Assembly: GCF_035594765.1 (NCBI RefSeq)
Contig: NW_026943818.1
Coordinates: forward strand, 32,361,559-32,425,558
Direction of reading: 5' to 3'
DNA length: 64,000 nt
DNA from: Anolis carolinensis
Taxonomy: Eukaryota
Position 1 is the first letter of the stretch, and each line of letters starts with the position of its first letter. Position numbers and translations under genes: made by a program. This document shows positions 16,160-64,000 of this stretch, piece by piece. The notes beneath the pieces are model-generated. The model worked only from the letters and a program-made list of their open reading frames with translations, was not told the DNA's origin and ran no database searches.

Positions 16160-17439
16160 GCTAGAGAGTTTCCCTCCTAGTCCGTCTCGTTGTTTTTGTC
16201 CCAGAGAGTCTCCCTCCTAGTCCGTCTCGTTGTCGTCCGTGAATGGCTAGAGAGTCTCCCTCCTAGTCCGTCTCGTTGTCGTCTGTGAATGGCTAGAGAG
16301 TCTCCCTCCTAGTCCGTCTCGTTGTTGTCGTCCGTGAATGGCTAGAGAGTCTCCCTCCTAGTCCGTCTCGTTGTTGTCGTCCGTGAATGGCTAGAGAGTC
16401 TCCCTCCTAGTCCGTCTCGTTGTTTTTGTCCCAGAGAGTCTCCCTCCTAGTCCGTCTCGTTGTTGTCGTCCGTGAATGGCTAGAGAGTCTCCCTCCTAGT
16501 CCGTCTCGTTGTTTTTGTCCCAGAGAGTCTCCCTCCTAGTCCGTCTCGTTGTTGTCGTCCGTGAATGGCTAGAGAGTCTCCCTCCTAGTCCGTCTCGTTG
16601 TTTTTGTCCCAGAGAGTCTCCCTCCTAGTCCGTCTCGTTGTTGTCGTCCGTGAATGGCTAGAGAGTCTCCCTCCTAGTCCGTCTCGTTGTTTTTGTCCCA
16701 GAGAGTCTCCCTCCTAGTCCGTCTCGTTGTCGTCCGTGAATGGCTAGAGAGTCTCCCTCCTAGTCCGTCTCGTTGTTTTTGTCCCAGAGAGTCTCCCTCC
16801 TAGTCCGTCTCGTTGTTGTCATCCGTGAATGGCTAGAGAGTCTCCCTCCTAGTCCGTCTCGTTGTTTTTGTCCCAGAGAGTCTCCCTCCTAGTCCGTCTC
16901 GTTGTTGTCGTCCGTGAATGGCTAGAGAGTCTCCCTCCTAGTCCGTCTCGTTGTTTTTGTCCCAGAGAGTCTCCCTCCTAGTCCGTCTCGTTGTTGTCGT
17001 CCGTGAATGGCTAGAGAGTCTCCCTCCTAGTCCGTCTCGTTGTTTTTGTCCCAGAGAGTCTCCCTCCTAGTCCGTCTCGTTGTCGTCCGTGAATGGCTAG
17101 AGAGTCTCCCTCCTAGTCCGTCTCGTTGTTTTTGTCCCAGAGAGTCTCCCTCCTAGTCCGTCTCGTTGTTGTCATCCGTGAATGGCTAGAGAGTCTCCCT
17201 CCTAGTCCGTCTCGTTGTTTTTGTCCCAGAGAGTCTCCCTCCTAGTCCGTCTCGTTGTCGTCCGTGAATGGTTAGAGAGTCTCCCTCCTAGTCCGTCTCG
17301 TTGTTTTTGTCCCAGAGAGTCTCCCTCCTAGTCCGTCTCGTTGTTGTCATCCGTGAATGGCTAGAGAGTCTCCCTCCTAGTCCGTCTCGTTGTTGTCGTC
17401 CCTGACGCTCTAACTGTTGACGGCCAGGGAGCCTCCGTC
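16160..17439 (-). repeat. Minisatellite made of KXD1 terminal codons plus stop, in the 3' UTR
   Basis: About 28 copies of AACGAGACGGACTAG (NETD*) in 40-bp and 46/49-bp units. Confidence 0.92.
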
Positions 17440-17672
17440 CTAGTCCGTCTCGTTGTCGTCGTCCGTGACGCTCTGACCGTTGACGGCCGGAGAGTCGTAC
17501 GGGCCCTGGGACAGGTCCTCGAAGTCGTGGCTGGTGGCGGGGGAGATGATGTCCGGGCTGGTGTCGCAAGACTCCGTGCTCTGCTCCGAGGTAGCGATGG
17601 TGGTGGCGGTGCTCTTGGGGACCGGGGTGAAGTCGTCGTCGTCGTCGTCCAGGATGGGGGATTCGTGAATAT
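17440..17672 (-). CDS. KXD1: KXD1 last coding exon
   Basis: CCCAG|AT; [11 protein letters not shown]...[17 protein letters not shown]...NETD TAG. Confidence 0.93.
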
Positions 17673-20600
17673 CTGGGACGGAAACAACAAAGAGGCATAG
17701 CGGAGTCAACACTGGAGGAACTACAGGTTCTCATTCATGAAATTAGCTTAGACTTGTCCCGGAGGATTTAGGAATTAACAACTTCCTTAAACACATCTAC
17801 TAAAATCGGTCTTCCGGACGGAGGGAGTGACAGGTAGATTAATTAGGCGTTCGGAGAGAGGTGTGTGAGGTATGATTTGATGGCTTCCTGGTCGGGCTTG
17901 GGTTTCAATTAAGTGAAACCATGCTGAGATGTGATCTCGGAGGGACAACTGAATTATTTCCTGTGATCCCTGGGGGTAAAAAATGGGAGTGACAGGTACA
18001 GTAGAGTCTCACTTATCCAAGCTAAACGGGCCGGCAGAAGCGAATGTCTTGGATAAAAAGGAGGGGTTAAGGAAAAGCCTATTAAACATCAAATTAGGTT
18101 ATGATTTTACAAATTAAGCACCAAAACATCACGTTATACAACAAATTTGACAGAAAAAGCAGTTCAATACGCAGGAATGTTATGTTGCAATTACTGTATT
18201 TACGAATTTAGCACCAAAATGTCACGATATATTGTGTAGCACCTTAATCTTCCTTCTTGTTTACAAGTTCCACTCAGTGCACTTTGCCCAGCTCATTTTA
18301 TGTTTTTATTGCTGTGTTTTTCATGTGTTTTATAATGATTGTGATTTTTAATGCCTTTTAAATTTATTTGTGTGTTTTTGCAAAACTGTATACTGTATGC
18401 TGGTTTTATATCTGTAAGCCGCCCCGAGTCCCTCTGGGGAGATGGTGGCGGGGTACAAGAATAAAGTTATTATTATTATTATTATTATATTATATATTGA
18501 AAACATTGACTACAAAAATGACTTGGATAATCCAGAGGCTTGGATAAGCGAGGCTTGGATAAGTGAGACTTTGGTCTATCTCTTTCTCACGAATTCTGTC
18601 CGATTTTCTGCACCTGAATCCTTCCCCCCTCAGTTTTTGGAAACACCCCTGAGTCCCTTTGGGGAGACAGAGCGGTATACAAATAATTATTTATTTGAGA
18701 GAAGGCAAGTTCAGATGGAGTTTTACTCACTGCTAAATGCATCCGGGTACTGTTTGGCCAGCTTCCCTTTCAGTGTCCTGCAAAGAACGAGAAGCTTAGC
18801 ATGAACCCATGATTCTCAGGAAGGCAACATGGGTTACTAAACATCCCAGAGTCAACAGAAAGATTAATGGCGCTGGGGAGGGTAGGAAAGGTGTGTGTTG
18901 CGTACCTGATTCTCCGGAAGATGCTGTCCAGGTCCTTCTTCATCTCCACCAACGTCCGAGTGTGGTGCAAGAAGCGCTCGTTCATCTGCTGCATGCGGAC
19001 GGCGGAGAGGTTGTTGAAGTTGAGCAGCATCTCGTTGGTTTTCTCGAAGCGGTCGAGCCTGGGAAAGCGGGTTGAACGACATTAGGAGTTTTCCTGAGAT
19101 TTCAGATTAGGTCTCCGGACGGAGGGAGTGAACGATTAATTCGGAGTTTTCCTGAGATTTCAGATTAGGTCTCCGGACGGACGGAGTGAACGATTAATTA
19201 GGAGTTTTCCTGAGATTTCAGATTAGGTCTCAGGACGGAGGGAGTGAACGATTAATTCAGAGTTCGGAGTTTTCCTGAGATTTCAGATTAGGTCTCCGGA
19301 CGGAGGGAGTGAACGATTAATTAGGAGTTTTCCTGAGATTTCAGATTAGGTCTCGGGACGGAGGGAGTGAACGATTAATTCGGAGTTTTCCTGAGATTTC
19401 AGATTAGGTCTCAGGACGGAGGTTGTGAACGATTAATTCGGAGTTTTCCTGAGATTTCAGATTAGGTCTCCGGACGGAGGGAGTGAACGATTAATTTGGA
19501 GTTTTCCTGAGATTTCAGATTAGGTCTCGGGACGGAGGGAGTGAACGATTAATTCGGAGTTTTCCTGAGATTTCAGATTAGGTCTCCGGACGGAGGGAGT
19601 GAACGATTAATTAGGAGTTTTCCTGAGATTTCAGATTAGGTCTCCGGACGGAGGGAGTGAACGATTAATTTGGAGTTTTCCTGAGATTTCAGATTAGGTC
19701 TCCGGACGGAGGGAGTGAACGATTAATTTGGAGTTTTCCTGAGATTTCAGATTAGGTCTCCGGACGGAGGGAGTGAACGATTAATTAGGAGTTTTCCTGA
19801 GATTTCAGATTAGGTCTCAGGACGGAGGTTGTGAACGATTAATTCGGAGTTTTCCTGAGATTTCAGATTAGGTCTCCGGACGGAGGGAGTGAACGATTAA
19901 TTAGGAGTTTTCCTGAGATTTCAGATTAGGTCTCAGGACGGAGGGAGTGAACGATTAATTCGGAGTTCGGAGTTTTCCTGAGATTTCAGATTAGGTCTCA
20001 GGACAGCGGGAGTGAACGATTAATTCCGAGTTCGGAGTTTTCCTGAGATTTCAGATTAGGTCTCCGGACAGAGGGAGTGAACGATTAATTCCGAGGTCGG
20101 AGTTTTCCTGAGATTTCAGATTAGGTCTCGGGACGGAGGGAGTGAACGATTAATTCGGAGTTTTCCTGAGATTTCAGATTAGGTCTCAGGGCGGAGGGAG
20201 TGAACGATTAATTCGGAGTTTGGAGTTTTCCTGAGATTTCAGATTAGGTCTCAGGACGGAGGGAGTGAACGATTAATTTGGAGTTTGGAGTTTTCCTGAG
20301 ATTTCAGATTAGGTCTCAGGACGGAGGGAGTGAACGATTAAATCGGAGTTCGGAGTTTTCCTGAGATTTCAGATTAGGTCTCAGGACGGAGGGAGTGAAC
20401 GATTAATTTGGAGTTTGGAGTTTTCCTGAGATTTCAGATTAGGTCTCAGGACGGAGGGAGTGAACGATTAAATCGGAGTTCGGAGTTTTCCTGAGATTTC
20501 AGATTAGGTCTCAGGACGGAGGGAGTGAACGATTAATTAGTTCTCTAGCTCTCAAGTTTGGGGACGTGCCGCAAAGAAGCCTTACATGTTTTTCTGTGCG

Positions 20601-20680
20601 AGGATGATGGCGTTGACATCCTCCGAGTTGACCATGCTGAGCACCCGGCTGCAGAAGACGCCCGAGGCCGAGGGCTCCAT
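17440..20680 (-). CDS. KXD1: KxDL motif-containing protein 1 (BORC subunit), complete, 175 aa
   Basis: Exons 20680-20586, 19058-18906, 18777-18731, 17672-17440 total 528 nt in frame: [50 protein letters not shown]...[29 protein letters not shown]...TDDDNETD*; KxDL motif (KKDL) present. Confidence 0.96.
17999..18570. mobile_element. Tc1/mariner MITE interrupted by an L2-like LINE 3' fragment (about 18235-18490)
   Basis: MITE halves flank an insert ending TGTAAGCCGCCCCGAGTCCC...(TTA)n, with ATATATTG duplicated on both sides. Confidence 0.75.
18731..18777 (-). CDS. KXD1: KXD1 coding exon 3
   Basis: 47 nt; [15 protein letters not shown]; TGCAG|G...A|GTGAGT. Confidence 0.92.
18906..19058 (-). 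CDS. KXD1: KXD1 coding exon 2
   Basis: 153 nt; CCCAG|G...AG|GTACG. Confidence 0.94.
19075..20540. repeat. 58-bp minisatellite filling a KXD1 intron
   Basis: Unit GGAGTTTTCCTGAGATTTCAGATTAGGTCTCCGGACGGAGGGAGTGAACGATTAATT(CG/AG), about 24 copies. Confidence 0.92.
20586..20680 (-). CDS. KXD1: KXD1 first coding exon
   Basis: Acceptor TTTTCCGCCAG| (exon starts 20699); ATG 20680; donor AT|GTAAG. Confidence 0.93.
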
Positions 20681-21132
20681 GGTCCAAGGGGCGCGCGATC
20701 TGGCGGAAAAACGGCACAACGATAGAGCCTTGGGTCGAAATACCAGCAAAATCCCACAAAGCATTTACTGTAATATGATAAGTATTAAAAGTATTATAAT
20801 ACTAAAGATAATAATTATTAATAAGAAAATATAATAAAATATTAATAATAAATATAATATAATTAATAATGAATATAATACAATAATGTAATAAAATTAT
20901 TAATAGAATAGATTAATATAAAACAATATAAAATTAATAATACATACTGTATAATATAATAATATAAAATATAATAATATAATAAAATTAATAATACATA
21001 TAATAATATAATATAATTAAATTATTAATAATAAATTTAATACAATAATACAATTATTAATAAAGAATGTAATAATATAATAAAACAATATAAAATTAAT
21101 AATAAAGATATTATAATAATATAAAATATAAT

Positions 21133-21428: not shown

Positions 21429-22524
21429 TATAATGTATTAATAAGAAATATAGTATAATAATATATAATAATAAAATAAAATTATTAATAATACACATAA
21501 TAGTAATAAAATAAGATAGAACAATATAATGTATTAATAATAAATATATATATAATATAATAAAATAATTATCGATAAATATAGTAATAAAATAAAATAT
21601 AATAATATAATTATTAGTAATAAAATAAGATATAATAATATAATATATTAATAATAAATATATATAATAATATAAAATAATTATCGATAAATATAGTAAT
21701 AAAATAAAATATAATTATATAATTATTAGTAATAAAATAAGATATAATAATATAATGTATTAATAATAAATATATATAATAATATAAAATAATTATCAAT
21801 AAATATAGTAATAAAATAAAATATAATAATATAATTATTAGTAATAAAATAAGATATAATAATATAATGTATTAATAATAAATATATATATAATAATATA
21901 AAATAATTATCGATAAATATAGTAATAAAATATAATATAATAATATAATTATTTGTAATAAAATAAGATATAATAATATAATGTATTAATAATAAATATA
22001 TATATAATAAAATAAAATAATTATCGATAAATATAGTAATAAAATAAAATATAATAATATAATTATTTGTAATAAAATAAGATATAATAATATAATGTAT
22101 TAATAATAAATATATATATATAATATAAAATAATTATCGATAAATATAGTAATAAAATAAAATATAATAATATAATTATTTGTAATAAAATAAGATATAA
22201 TAATATAATTATTATTAATAAATATATATATAATAATATAAAATAATTATCGATAAATATAGTAATAAAATAAAATATAATAATATAATTATTAATAATA
22301 AATATAATAATACAAAATAAATATAATAAATACAGAGGAGTGCTTTGATTGTGCTTTTCCTGCATGACAGGATGGGGTTGGACTAGATGTCCCAACTCTA
22401 TCCCAGACCCTTCCCAAGCCCCGCCCCCTTTCCCCAAGCCCCGCCCCTTTTAGGCTTTTCATCGGGCTAGGCCCCGCCCACTGGCTGTATCCCAACGGTC
22501 GTTTTGGCCCCGCCCCCTCCGCAC

Positions 22525-22670
22525 CTGAAGGGAGCTCCGAGGCCGAAGGTTCACATCCCGGACGCCGGCGAGGCCTCGGTCGAGACGGAGAGAGAGAGAG
22601 AAAGAGAGAGAGGCGGCGCGGCCTCGGCTCCGTCCCAACCGCCTCACAAACGGCCCACTTCCGGGTAAGG
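22525..22670 (-). other. KXD1: Putative KXD1 non-coding exon 1
   Basis: CpG island; donor CTTCAG|GTGCGG at 22525/22524; ETS motif CCGGAAGT near 22660; TSS not determinable from sequence. Confidence 0.55.
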
Positions 22671-24320
22671 CGGGGCGACGCGCTTGGACGTCGCCTTCTG
22701 CGTCGCCGTACGTGCCGTGCGTGGTTGCCCTTAGCAACGTCCGTCCCACCGCCTCCTTTCGATTGGTGGAGAGGGAAGAGGGCTAAGCCCCGCCCCCTCG
22801 CTGTGTTATGTGAATGTCACTGGCTCCGCCCACGCCTCGTTTTGATTGGTGGAGAGGGAAGAGCACTAAGCCCCGCCCTCTCGCTGTGATATGGCTCCGC
22901 CCCCGCCTCGTTTGGATTAGTCGAAAGGAAAGAGAACTAAGCCCCGCCCCCTCACTGTGTTATGTGAAAGTCACTGGCTCCGCCTCCATCTCGTTTTGAT
23001 TGGTGGAGAGGGAAGAGCACTAAGCCCCGCCCTCTCGCTGTGATATGGCTCCGCCCCCGCCTCGTTTGGATTAGTCGAAAGGAAAGAGAACTAAGCCCCG
23101 CCCCCTCGCTTTGTTATAGGCAGGGCTCTGGCTCCGCCTCTGCCTTGTTTTGATTGGTGGAGAGGGAAGAGAACTAAGCCCCGCCCCCTCGCTGTGTTAT
23201 GTGAAAGTCACTGGCTCCGCCTCCATCTCGTTTTGATTGGTGGAGAGGGAAGAGAACTAAGCCCCGCCCCCTCGCTGTGTTATGTGAAAGTCACTGGCTC
23301 CGCCTCCATCTCGTTTTGATTGGTGGAAAGGGAAGAGAACTAAGCCCCGCCCCCTCGCTGTGTTATGTGAAAGTCACTGGCTCCGCCTCCATCTCGTTTT
23401 GATTGGTGGAAAGGGAAGAGAACTAAGCCCCGCCCCCTCGCTGTGTTATGTGAAAGTCACTGGCTCCGCCTCCATCTCGTTTTGATTGGTGGAGAGGGAA
23501 GAGAACTAAGCCCCGCCCCCTCGCTGTGTTATGTGAAAGTCACTGGCTCCGCCTCCATCTCGTTTTGATTGGTGGAGAGGGAAGAGAACTAAGCTCCGCC
23601 CCCTCGCTGTGTTATGTGAAAGTCACTGGCTCCGCCTCCATCTCGTTTTGATTGGTGGAGAGGGAAGAGAACTAAGCCCCGCCCCCTCGCTGTGTTATGT
23701 GAAAGTCACTGGCTCCGCCTCCATCTCGTTTTGATTGGTGGAGAGGGAAGAGAACTAAGCTCCGCCCCCTCGCTGTGTTATGTGAAAGTCACTGGCTCCG
23801 CCTCCATCTCGTTTTGATTGGTGGAGAGGGAAGAGAACTAAGCTCCGCCCCCTCGCTGTGTTATGTGAAAGTCACTGGCTCCGCCTCCATCTCGTTTTGA
23901 TTGGTGGAGAGGGAAGAGAACTAAGCCCCGCCCCCTCGCTGTGTTATGTGAAAGTCACTGGCTCCGCCTCCATCTCGTTTTGATTGGTGGAGAGGGAAGA
24001 GAACTAAGCCCCGCCCCCTCGCTGTGTTATGTGAAAGTCACTGGCTCCGCCTCTGCCTTGTTATGATTGGTGGAGAGGGAAGAGAACTAAGCCCCGCCCC
24101 CTGAAAGGACGCAAAGGGTGACGGGAAGTGTAGTCTTCCAAGGCACGAGCAGGAAGCGGGTGGTAAATACAGCGCCTGTCCCTTTAAGACGGTTGCGCAA
24201 TGGGGGCGTGCGGAGGTCAGGCTGGAGTGGCGGCTCTCCCAGCCTATCAGCCGCCTCCCCGGCCGTCAGGTGATCTAAAAAAGGGGGCGGAACCCCGGAA
24301 GTGAGCCATTCCTGGGCCCA
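22650..24320. promoter_or_regulatory. KXD1/FKBP8 bidirectional promoter
   Basis: RFX X-box GTTGCC-CTT-AGCAAC 22724-22738; ZNF143/THAP11-type GACTACACTTCCC (- strand) 24123-24135; ETS sites; CCAAT/GC-box array. Confidence 0.8.
22761..24102. repeat. 83-bp tandem array of a CCAAT-box + GC-box module
   Basis: GATTGG recurs at 23152, 23235, 23318, 23401...24065; each unit has CCCCGCCCC (or CTCCGCCCC) and GGCTCCGCC; about 17 units. Confidence 0.93.
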
Positions 24321-24321
24321 G
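24190..24321 (+). other. FKBP8: Putative FKBP8 non-coding exon 1
   Basis: CpG-rich; consensus donor CAG|GTGAGT at 24321/24322 (alternative GAA|GTGAGC at 24301); start approximate. Confidence 0.55.
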
Positions 24322-29037: not shown

Positions 29038-29073
29038 ATATATACATGTATCACTCACAGCTCGGCCGGTGCC

Positions 29074-40388
<11,315 letters not shown>

Positions 40389-62600: not shown

Positions 62601-64000
62601 TCGCCCGACAAGCCTCTTTTGGCAGCAACAACGGGAAAGGCATCCAGAAGTTCAGAAAGAGTTCGGCGGGGAAGCGAAATTCAAGTCAGGAACACTGGGG
62701 TGTCTGTGGTGGAGGCAAAAAAAAGAAATAGGAAAAGGGTTGAGGGAGAGTCAGTGGGTGGGGTGATGCGAATTCCACACCCATGGAGAGAGTCAGGAAC
62801 ACTAGGGTGTCTGTGGTGGAGGAAAAAAGAAATAGGAAAAGGGTTAAGGGAGAGTCAGTGGGTGGGGTGATGCGAATTCCACACCCATGGAGAGAGTCAG
62901 GAACACTAGGGTGTCTGTGGTGGAGGAAAAAAGAAATAGGAAAAGGGTTAAGGGAGAGGCAGTGGGCGGGATCATGCAAATTCTACACCAATGGAGAGAG
63001 TCAGGAACACTGAGGTGTCTGTGGTGGAGGGAAAAAAGAAATTGGAAAGGGTTAAGGGAGAGGCAGTGGGCGGGGTCATGCAAATTGCACACCAATGGAG
63101 AGAGTCAGGAACACTGGGGTGTTTGTGGTGGAGGGAAAAAAGAAATAGGAAAGGGTTAAGGGAGAGGCAGTGGGCGAGGACATGCAAATTCCACACCAAC
63201 GGAGAGAGTCAGGAACATTAGGGTGTCCGTGGTGGAGGAAAAACGGCAAATTGTCCCAGTTGCGTGGTGGGCACTGTGGTGTCTGTGGATACACAAATTC
63301 ATATTTTCACTGTTATTATTTGTATATATTATTATTATTACTATTTATTATTATTAGTAGTAGTAGTAGTAGTTGTAGTAGATGGTGACATCTCTCTTTG
63401 TCTTTCAAGTGAATTCACAAAGCACAGAATCAAGCCAGGAAAGTGTTACTACGGTCAAGGATGTGTCGACTGAGGCGGAAACCACTTTTCCAACAACTAG
63501 TGCGAGAACAAGTTCAGAGACAACCACCTTGACGCTTACTCCATCTACCAAAGAATCCACATCTGCTTCAAAGACAACCACGTTGTCAAAGGATACGTCT
63601 ACTGGGAAATCCACGTCTACTCCAGAGACAACCGCCTCTTCCCAAACTACTCCAGAGACCACCACCTTGACCCCAACTACATCTTCCGAAGAATCTACCA
63701 CTGCTCCAGAGACAACCACCTTGTCTGATTCTACCACTGCTCCAGATACAACCACCTTGTCTGAATCTACCAATGGTCCAGAGACCACCACCTTGTCTGA
63801 ATCTACCACTGCTCCAGAGACCACCACCTTGTCTGAATCTACCAATGGTCCAGAGACCACCACCTTGTCTGAATCTACCACTGCTCCAGAGACAACCACC
63901 TTGTCTGATTCTACCACTGCTCCAGAGACCACCACCTTGTCTGAATCTACCACTGCTCCAGAGACCACCACCTTGTCTGAATCTACCACTGCTCCAGAGA
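59599..64000 (+). CDS. Unidentified mucin-like secreted or membrane glycoprotein, 5' part
   Basis: Exon 59599-59674 (MVRKRHRGLRNVFLVLILYCHLWAP, phase-1 donor G|GTAGGG) joins exon 63410->64000 (TCTCTTTGTCTTTCAAG|) in frame to give ...LWAPVNS-QSTESSQESVTT...; open to the window end. Confidence 0.75.
59750..62210. repeat. 52-bp minisatellite in the mucin-like gene intron
   Basis: TAGACAAAATTGCCAGAAATTCGGGATTTGTTTGGCTCTAATATATTGTTTG, period 52. Confidence 0.92.
62685..63245. repeat. About 105-bp purine-rich tandem repeat (about 5.5 copies)
   Basis: GTCAGGAACACT(G/A)GGGTGTCTGTGGTGGAGG...GGAAAAGGGTTAAGGGAGAG. Confidence 0.85.
63410..64000 (+). CDS. PTS-rich mucin exon with 36-bp (12-aa) repeats STTAPETTTLSE
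   Basis: Uninterrupted Thr/Ser/Pro/Glu frame; repeats start at 63694, about 8.5 copies before the window ends. Confidence 0.82.

Follow-up and report, generated by a model that had tools for sequence, protein, structure and literature searches.

The window analysed here is a stretch of 64,000 nucleotides of Anolis carolinensis DNA, located at 32.4 Mb of the 41.2-Mb contig C9. Within it lies a head-to-head gene pair. Pfam finds a KxDL domain on the minus strand, encoded in the exon after exon 2 of KXD1, and TPR and FKBP_C (below cut-off) on the plus strand, in a gene that we take to be FKBP8. The space between the two is largely filled by a tandem array.

The first exons are visible in sequencing run X19. 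A contig of 755 nt runs from 22664 to 22525 and is then spliced to KXD1 exon 2 (20699), while one of 1891 nt runs from 24024 to 24321 and is then spliced to FKBP8 exon 2 (29061). Both first exons are therefore real and non-coding, and both genes are transcribed from the interval between them, which is the arrangement of a bidirectional promoter. The features are:

20545..20699, minus strand: KXD1 exon 2, the first coding exon, from the open reading frame (acceptor AG at 20699, lower boundary approximate; the loose end of the X19 contig covers 20670-20699)
22525..22664, minus strand: KXD1 non-coding exon 1, from X19 (donor 22525; 22664 is the contig end and not a mapped start)
22657..22664, minus strand: ETS-like site, motif match
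22724..22738, no strand: RFX X-box-like palindrome, 67 bp from the KXD1 contig end
22740..22760, plus strand: diverged partial unit tail, GC-box-like, from comparison of the left flank with the tail of unit 1
22761..23151, plus strand: units 1-5, the diverged and older end, with two 71-bp units, two ATTAG boxes and a 154-bp dimer present twice
23152..23981, plus strand: units 6-15, the homogeneous 83-bp core
23982..24102, plus strand: unit 16 with a variant tail, and the 38-bp unit 17 with CCAAT and one GC box
24103..24321, plus strand: unique FKBP8 flank and non-coding exon 1, from the X19 contig (donor 24321)
24123..24135, minus strand: ZNF143/THAP11-like motif, motif match
24295: ETS-like site in the FKBP8 flank, motif match
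29061..29380, plus strand: FKBP8 exon 2, the first coding exon, from X19 and the open reading frame (acceptor 29061, upper boundary approximate)

The flank motifs are presumed to be what their names say (RFX X-box, ETS, ZNF143/THAP11), and NF-Y and Sp are likewise the factors we assume for the CCAAT and GC boxes.

The start sites of a bidirectional promoter conventionally lie within about 1 kb of each other. If FKBP8 starts to the right of the array, the gap between start sites is more than 1.4 kb. The first base of the FKBP8 contig lies exactly 30 bases ahead of the first private base of unit 16, an edge that suggests a boundary in the assembly graph rather than a transcription start. Read that way, the contigs of this one run hint that some RNA runs from inside the array into FKBP8.

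Anatomy of the array

Counted from 17 GATT[G/A]GT anchors, the array at 22761..24102 consists of 16 full units and a 38-bp stub, and has a TRF score of 2058. It takes up 1342 bp of the 1657-bp interval that separates the KXD1 contig end (22664) from the FKBP8 donor. Fourteen of the full units measure 83 bp; units 2 and 4 have a 12-bp deletion and measure 71 bp. Units 2-3 and 4-5 are one 154-bp dimer, duplicated.

The CCAAT-type box reads ATTGG in 15 of the 17 units and is lost in the other two (ATTAG in units 3 and 5). The first GC box lies 21 nt past ATTGG and is exactly CCCCGCCCC in 12 of 17 units, with the variants CTCCGCCCC in three and CCCCGCCCT in two. The second GC box, GGCTCCGCC, is found in all 16 full units, and that of the modal unit is weaker than that of units 1, 2 and 4. 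Every CCAAT has GC boxes 14-21 bp away on either side.

None of units 6-15 is more than one base away from the modal unit, and there are eight distinct unit types in all. Just left of unit 1, 21 bases look like the tail of a unit; they are probably a relic of an ancestral single module.

Much of this had been claimed in an earlier note on the same DNA. It described an 83-bp unit amplified about 17-fold over almost the whole space between the divergent first exons, with an ATTGG per unit (ATTAG in two), a GC box about 20 nt later, a second GC box, and nearly identical central copies. It also placed RFX X-box-, ETS- and ZNF143-like motifs in the flanks, where matches indeed lie at 22724-22738, 22657/24295 and 24123-24135. 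The measurements bear this description out, except that the unit is 83 bp long in 14 cases and shorter in units 2 and 4.

CpG observed/expected and GC content are 0.91 and 64% in the left flank, 0.64 and 56% in the array, and 0.72 and 61% in the right flank. An 83-bp unit has 4 CpGs, versus 10 and 5 in the flanks. This is CpG-island composition, but with a whole-window ratio of 0.92 it discriminates little here. That ratio, along with CpG-rich exons, is itself unusual for vertebrate DNA.

Open reading frames in the array meet a stop in every unit and are 50-74 aa long. Most 83-bp units also have a plus-strand ATG-TGA (24029 and equivalent offsets), so FKBP8 RNAs begun inside the array would carry start-stop upstream frames.

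Two composite elements were considered by their consensus patterns. Neither TGACAG nor TGAnTGACA (DECA-CCAAT composite) occurs within the array, nor does the ERSE pattern. Composites of TALE (PBX/PREP) with NF-Y, and ERSE, were rejected on these grounds.

The array in other sequencing runs

Seven of 24 listed runs were examined: six of organism A, from five studies, and one (X21) of the related organism B. The list contains no library on record as RNA. Contigs of array units are present in all six organism A runs, and in the DNA or unlabelled runs X4, X5, X10, X11 and X13 these stand at several times flank depth. The core stands at 9.6 times flank depth in X13, where the assembly predicts 11, at 6.1-10.6 times in X4 (9.6 predicted) and at 5.3-7.4 times in X5 (9.1 predicted); contig depth is not copy number, so these ratios are read only as the array being multi-copy.

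At several flank positions X4, X10 and X13 differ from the assembly, which makes them other haplotypes. Unit types also differ between runs. The variant tail of unit 16 is found in X19, stands at about half the flank depth in X5, and is not among the contigs of X4, X10 and X13. This distribution suggests internal polymorphism.

X10 is very deep and fragmented and was counted as presence only. Coverage of the promoter in X11, a run of 19.7 million letters with no library type recorded, ends near 22445; the run may come from an enriched library, and this pattern was given no weight. In X19, contigs are missing from 22675-22743 and from the first introns, which was likewise not counted as evidence. 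No X21 contig reached the promoter at 80% likeness, a gap that is no evidence of absence.

The genome assembly, G000, was also searched. All eight matches to the unit, among the best candidates scored, lie at the KXD1/FKBP8 locus. A pattern search found 9 of its 15 matches there, the other six having unrelated spacers. Dispersed copies with the structure of a mobile element, LTR12-like or transposon, did not turn up among these unit matches, which all come from one locus.

The earlier note had taken the array to be a recent expansion of a CCAAT and GC-box module. Multi-copy unit contigs in independent runs and haplotypes indicate that it is not an assembly artefact, and the youth of the expansion is likewise supported.

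Tandem repeats in the region

Tandem repeats make up 57% of the surrounding 464 kb, where 46 TRF rows have a period of at least 30, at least 8 copies and at least 85% identity. In two more blocks of 200 kb the figures are 52% and 49%, for a studied neighbourhood of 864 kb. Along C9 the share ranges from 11 to 74% (13 samples), versus 0.3 to 3.0% in seven samples of C1-C4. The repeat load of C9 is 10-30 times that of these macrochromosome samples. An array is found in 573 of 1386 tiles of 600 bp, and in 119 of 257 GC-rich tiles. This is a background rate of 41-46%.

The KXD1/FKBP8 repeat is therefore far beyond chance as a repeat, and ordinary as a repeat within its region. A regional tandem-duplication process is the likely source of the array.

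Some other arrays were noted in passing. An 89-bp array of 12 copies at 16163-17402 adjoins the last KXD1 coding frame (17288-17734), overlaps its end, and possibly amplifies acidic C-terminal or 3' UTR sequence of that gene. A 36-bp array of more than 300 copies extends over 63691-64000, L029 and L030:1-885, and there is a 42-bp array at L031:6004-9933. The periods of both are multiples of three, and they may encode mucin-like repeats rich in Ser/Thr. A 4-kb array of 55-bp GC-box units lies near the start of contig C6 (G000:C6 437,429-441,633).

GC-box arrays with 93/94-bp units fill two introns of an SH2 kinase gene, presumably ZAP70-like (L037:1790-2740 and 4500-6150, 10 and 17.5 copies). 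As a locus-born intronic control these were rejected, because the unit recurs on C1, C5 and C9 and thus belongs to a dispersed family.

Similar arrays at other promoters

The 864 kb contain 13 promoter-like motif clusters, five of which have a motif module in three copies or more. The clusters were defined by one ad hoc motif list, and three of the 13 do not look like promoters. Seven were checked by repeat search and the remainder by TRF or reading. Five of 13, or of 10, comes close to the 41-46% found in background tiles. Besides KXD1/FKBP8, the amplified clusters are:

L115:8950-10000 and L116:1-620 (C9, around 31.98 Mb, some 400 kb off): 123-bp CCAAT and GC-box unit with 15 CCAAT boxes and an X-box-like half site
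L119:7200-7600 (C9, 32.02 Mb): NRF1/ETS-like module, 53 bp x 7, at a MAU2-like start codon, in a bidirectional promoter whose exons are the Cohesin_load (MAU2-like) first exon and a divergent one
L152: 22 GC boxes across 1.1 kb
L047: module in at least three copies

Between the L115/L116 array and its first exon sit older CCAAT/GC modules that face the opposite way.

More arrays are found elsewhere on C9. They come from pattern searches, which select for arrays:

L167: ETS and CCAAT, 14 ETS cores; L173: ETS, 55 bp; L209: 45 bp x 10
L203, L204 and L207: further arrays
L180:1300-1850 (40.64 Mb): nine old ETS-CRE modules upstream of a first exon that has no Pfam match and that we assume to be SLC35E1-like
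L208:1240-1990 (27.58 Mb): NRF1-type array of roughly 50-bp units at the SPT4 promoter, apparently between two divergent first exons
L205 and L206 (15.69 and 15.74 Mb, 52 kb apart): near-identical promoter copies with a 65-bp NRF1 and GC module

L205 and L206 are either a segmental duplication or an uncollapsed haplotype. They have 6 and 8 units respectively, so such arrays change length fast.

In total, at least 10 promoters on C9 have module arrays, with unit identities from about 95% down to 60%, some with motifs preserved. An array is present at seven of eight C9 loci taken from the NRF1 search, among the matches listed. Twelve CCAAT-GC-CCAAT loci on C1-C6 had at least three copies in two cases (L051 and L162) and a duplication in one.

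Genome-wide, a search for CCAAT triples gave 1069 matches versus 150 for the control, the 100 listed being dominated by satellites and dispersed repeats. GC-box triples gave 256, with one subtelomeric array dominating the 100 listed, and NRF1 triples gave 221, many of the 100 listed belonging to a single dispersed palindromic family. No match was obtained for ETS triples at 79-108 bp.

Motif retention

Older arrays can be examined for motifs that stay while spacers drift. At L180 the ETS-CRE motif is found in nine of nine units with spacers only 65% identical, and a sparing test on the five motif columns outside the search pattern gives p=0.009. At L208 the NRF1-type 10-mer is nearly invariant across 14 anchors, with spacers 67% identical. 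L119 agrees. At L173, 4 of 17 ETS cores are altered and sparing falls short of significance (p=0.08). Cutting the units at the motif tilts the comparison towards retention, yet to judge by the spacings hardly any unit lacks a motif. The intact motifs in the drifted arrays L180 and L208 suggest that the sites are used.

In the younger KXD1/FKBP8 array, by columns, 2 of 22 motif positions vary versus 23 of 61 others (p=0.009); by events, counted by eye, the result is not significant (p=0.11-0.22). Motif sparing in this array is suggestive only.

Unit length and spacing

The length of 83 bp is 7.90 helical turns at 10.5 bp per turn and 7.98 at 10.4 bp. The earlier note proposed that the sites would lie on one face of the helix. 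This is weakened: of 43 local arrays, 9 approach whole turns at least as well at 10.5 bp and 3 do so at 10.4 bp, and two units are 71 bp long. The note also equated two units with about one chromatosome, which is unsupported, since periods of 75-90 bp are found in 8 of the 43. Intronic minisatellites of birds favour multiples of 10-11 bp as well, according to the available parts of 10.1101/2025.10.14.682431, 10.1101/2025.10.17.683159 and PMC9974502.

CCAAT dimers in NF-Y promoters have preferred spacings of 31, 41, 52 and 63 bp, as given in the accessible portion of PMC4982600. The 83-bp unit fits this series, 31+10.5n. However, 10 of 42 background arrays fall within 0.1 turn of the series and 5 of 42 within 0.05 turn, which is as close. 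Other CCAAT promoter arrays have periods of 73, 76, 123 and 134 bp. Phasing and spacing fit of 83 bp are no better than chance.

How the array may work

We somewhat favour reading the array as a young minisatellite of regional duplication origin that has become an open platform, likely bound by NF-Y and Sp, with end units that fire outward and a copy-number effect that plateaus. For it speak the repeat load of the region, the modules amplified at sister promoters, motif retention at L180 and L208, the distance of the first CCAAT from the end of the KXD1 contig, the duplication bias described at bound sites and the bird parallel given below. Against it count the loss of CCAAT from two units, the weaker second GC box of the modal unit, sparing that is not significant here by events or at L173, the ad hoc motif list behind the 13 clusters, the short human insertions for which the duplication bias was described, and the steep dose dependence of TRIB3.

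A single GC-CCAAT-GC module would have been duplicated by slippage or unequal exchange between its own GC boxes, as suggested by an array that starts and ends in GC-box-like sequence. It would then have expanded and been homogenised in the middle. NF-Y and Sp/KLF are expected to bind the units. With GC boxes on both sides of each CCAAT, the module suits both directions.

Starts inside the array would be mostly blocked, since each falls on the sites of the next unit, while the ends could fire freely. Inner units may keep the region open and buffer the loss of sites. With inner starts blocked, output should climb while copies are few and flatten thereafter. A small amount of RNA would begin inside the array and read into FKBP8.

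Position matters for these factors. As far as the available text of PMC11269187 goes, NFY and Sp1 activate from about -120 to -40, and sites for NFY, Sp1 and NRF1 just downstream of a start repress. Measured from the KXD1 contig end, the first CCAAT is 98 bp away, within the activating zone of that study. Such position dependence makes a linear dial over 1.3 kb less likely than saturation.

That linear version, in which a polymorphic VNTR sets the output of KXD1 and FKBP8 together and roughly in proportion to its unit number, we consider unlikely. It does have a human precedent in the 33-bp VNTR of the TRIB3 promoter, where output rises about 5-fold in reporters from one to five copies and an eQTL is found (PMC7425993, accessible part); short arrays can thus be steeply dose-dependent. 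Each unit is a whole activator module by motif match, unit types differ between runs, and L205 and L206 illustrate fast length change. But most units are more than 200 bp from either end, outside the positional-effect zone described in the available part of PMC11269187. The fit of 83 bp to the spacing series, also cited in favour, is common in the background, and the regional process accounts for the origin of the array without selection.

The opposite possibility is that only the terminal units work, and that a methylated or nucleosomal interior has split one bidirectional promoter into two. Each flank indeed has sites of its own (X-box and ETS on the left, ZNF143-like and ETS on the right), units are poorer in CpG than the flanks, arrays of similar size with GC boxes occur in introns (L037), and motif sparing is not significant by events. 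This inert interior is nevertheless rather improbable: inner units of older sister arrays keep their motifs, the array retains its CpG ratio of 0.64 and GC of 56%, and the X19 contigs, from one run, suggest RNA that goes from unit 16 into spliced FKBP8 and contains a full unit cycle.

An assembly artefact, or an enhancer derived from a transposon or LTR and inserted in the promoter, might explain the near-identical core, and LTR12 does have 5-17 NF-Y repeats (PMC11853044, available part), but it is highly improbable given unit contigs at several times flank depth in five runs, the other haplotypes of X4, X10 and X13, eight unit types with a higher-order dimer, and unit matches in G000 that, among the best candidates scored, all lie at this locus.

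The plateauing platform thus remains the favoured reading for this locus. A wider and more tentative one concerns all of C9. Its housekeeping promoters may have seen the repeated birth of minisatellites from factor modules (NF-Y and Sp, ETS, ETS-CRE, NRF1), with selection possibly keeping sites while spacers decay, and with the youngest, KXD1/FKBP8, perhaps segregating in unit number and tuning two genes.

Taken alone, the KXD1/FKBP8 array is large but unremarkable for a promoter minisatellite. What gives it value is its place as the youngest in a series, and this chromosome-wide series is the part worth following. The series could test whether homotypic clusters arise from mutational bias and are then selectively retained, and whether the output of a promoter grows linearly with site number or saturates. 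If the module-birth-and-selection reading is true, these arrays are a natural titration series for site number versus promoter strength. Short-read assemblies and promoter annotations will collapse such elements in regions like this one.

Comparison with known systems

Promoter VNTRs with factor sites (reviewed in PMC12776774, available part), NF-Y repeat enhancers and a duplication bias at bound sites are all already known. The open-licence literature, supplements falling outside its scope, contained no report of a KXD1/FKBP8 promoter array in the parts accessible, and none of amplified promoter modules in lizards.

The portion available of PMC8559717 describes germline tandem duplication that multiplies sites for NRF1, SP/KLF and further factors at germline-active promoters, through mutational bias and not adaptation. 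Those are single human insertions of 5-20 bp, whereas the lizard arrays have modules of 45-135 bp in 4-20 copies, in a repeat-saturated region.

The U3 of LTR12/ERV9 has 5-17 tandem units with an NF-Y CCAAT box, and acts as enhancer and promoter in open chromatin (PMC11853044, same part). It is retroviral and dispersed, with units of about 41 bp that have GATA/MZF1 sites. The unit at KXD1/FKBP8 is locus-specific among the G000 matches scored, and looks derived from the host promoter.

The CCAAT dimers of PMC4982600 share direct-repeat CCAAT boxes with GC boxes, and 83 bp would extend their series, although the accessible portion reports no peak at 83. They involve two or three boxes with unrelated spacers, unlike the homogeneous array seen here.

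Gene-rich dot chromosomes of birds provide the regional parallel. Minisatellites make up 51% of their euchromatin and more than 70% of introns (10.1101/2025.10.14.682431, 10.1101/2025.10.17.683159 and PMC9974502, available parts), so that these too are small regions rich in housekeeping genes with half the DNA in minisatellites. What the accessible text describes there is intronic arrays and G4s, not promoter modules, and C9 is a 41-Mb lizard chromosome.

The TRIB3 VNTR of PMC7425993 also resembles the array. In both cases, as far as the available part goes, a promoter element with a factor site was amplified in tandem in one lineage. The lizard array too lies in the proximal promoter, with 96 bp between it and the KXD1 contig end and 219 bp between it and the FKBP8 donor, and by consensus match its units carry factor sites (CCAAT in 15 of 17, GC boxes in all). 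TRIB3 has 1-5 copies, one type of site, one gene and a proven dose effect, where KXD1/FKBP8 has about 17 copies of an 83-bp module with three sites, a putative length polymorphism, two genes and a putative effect.
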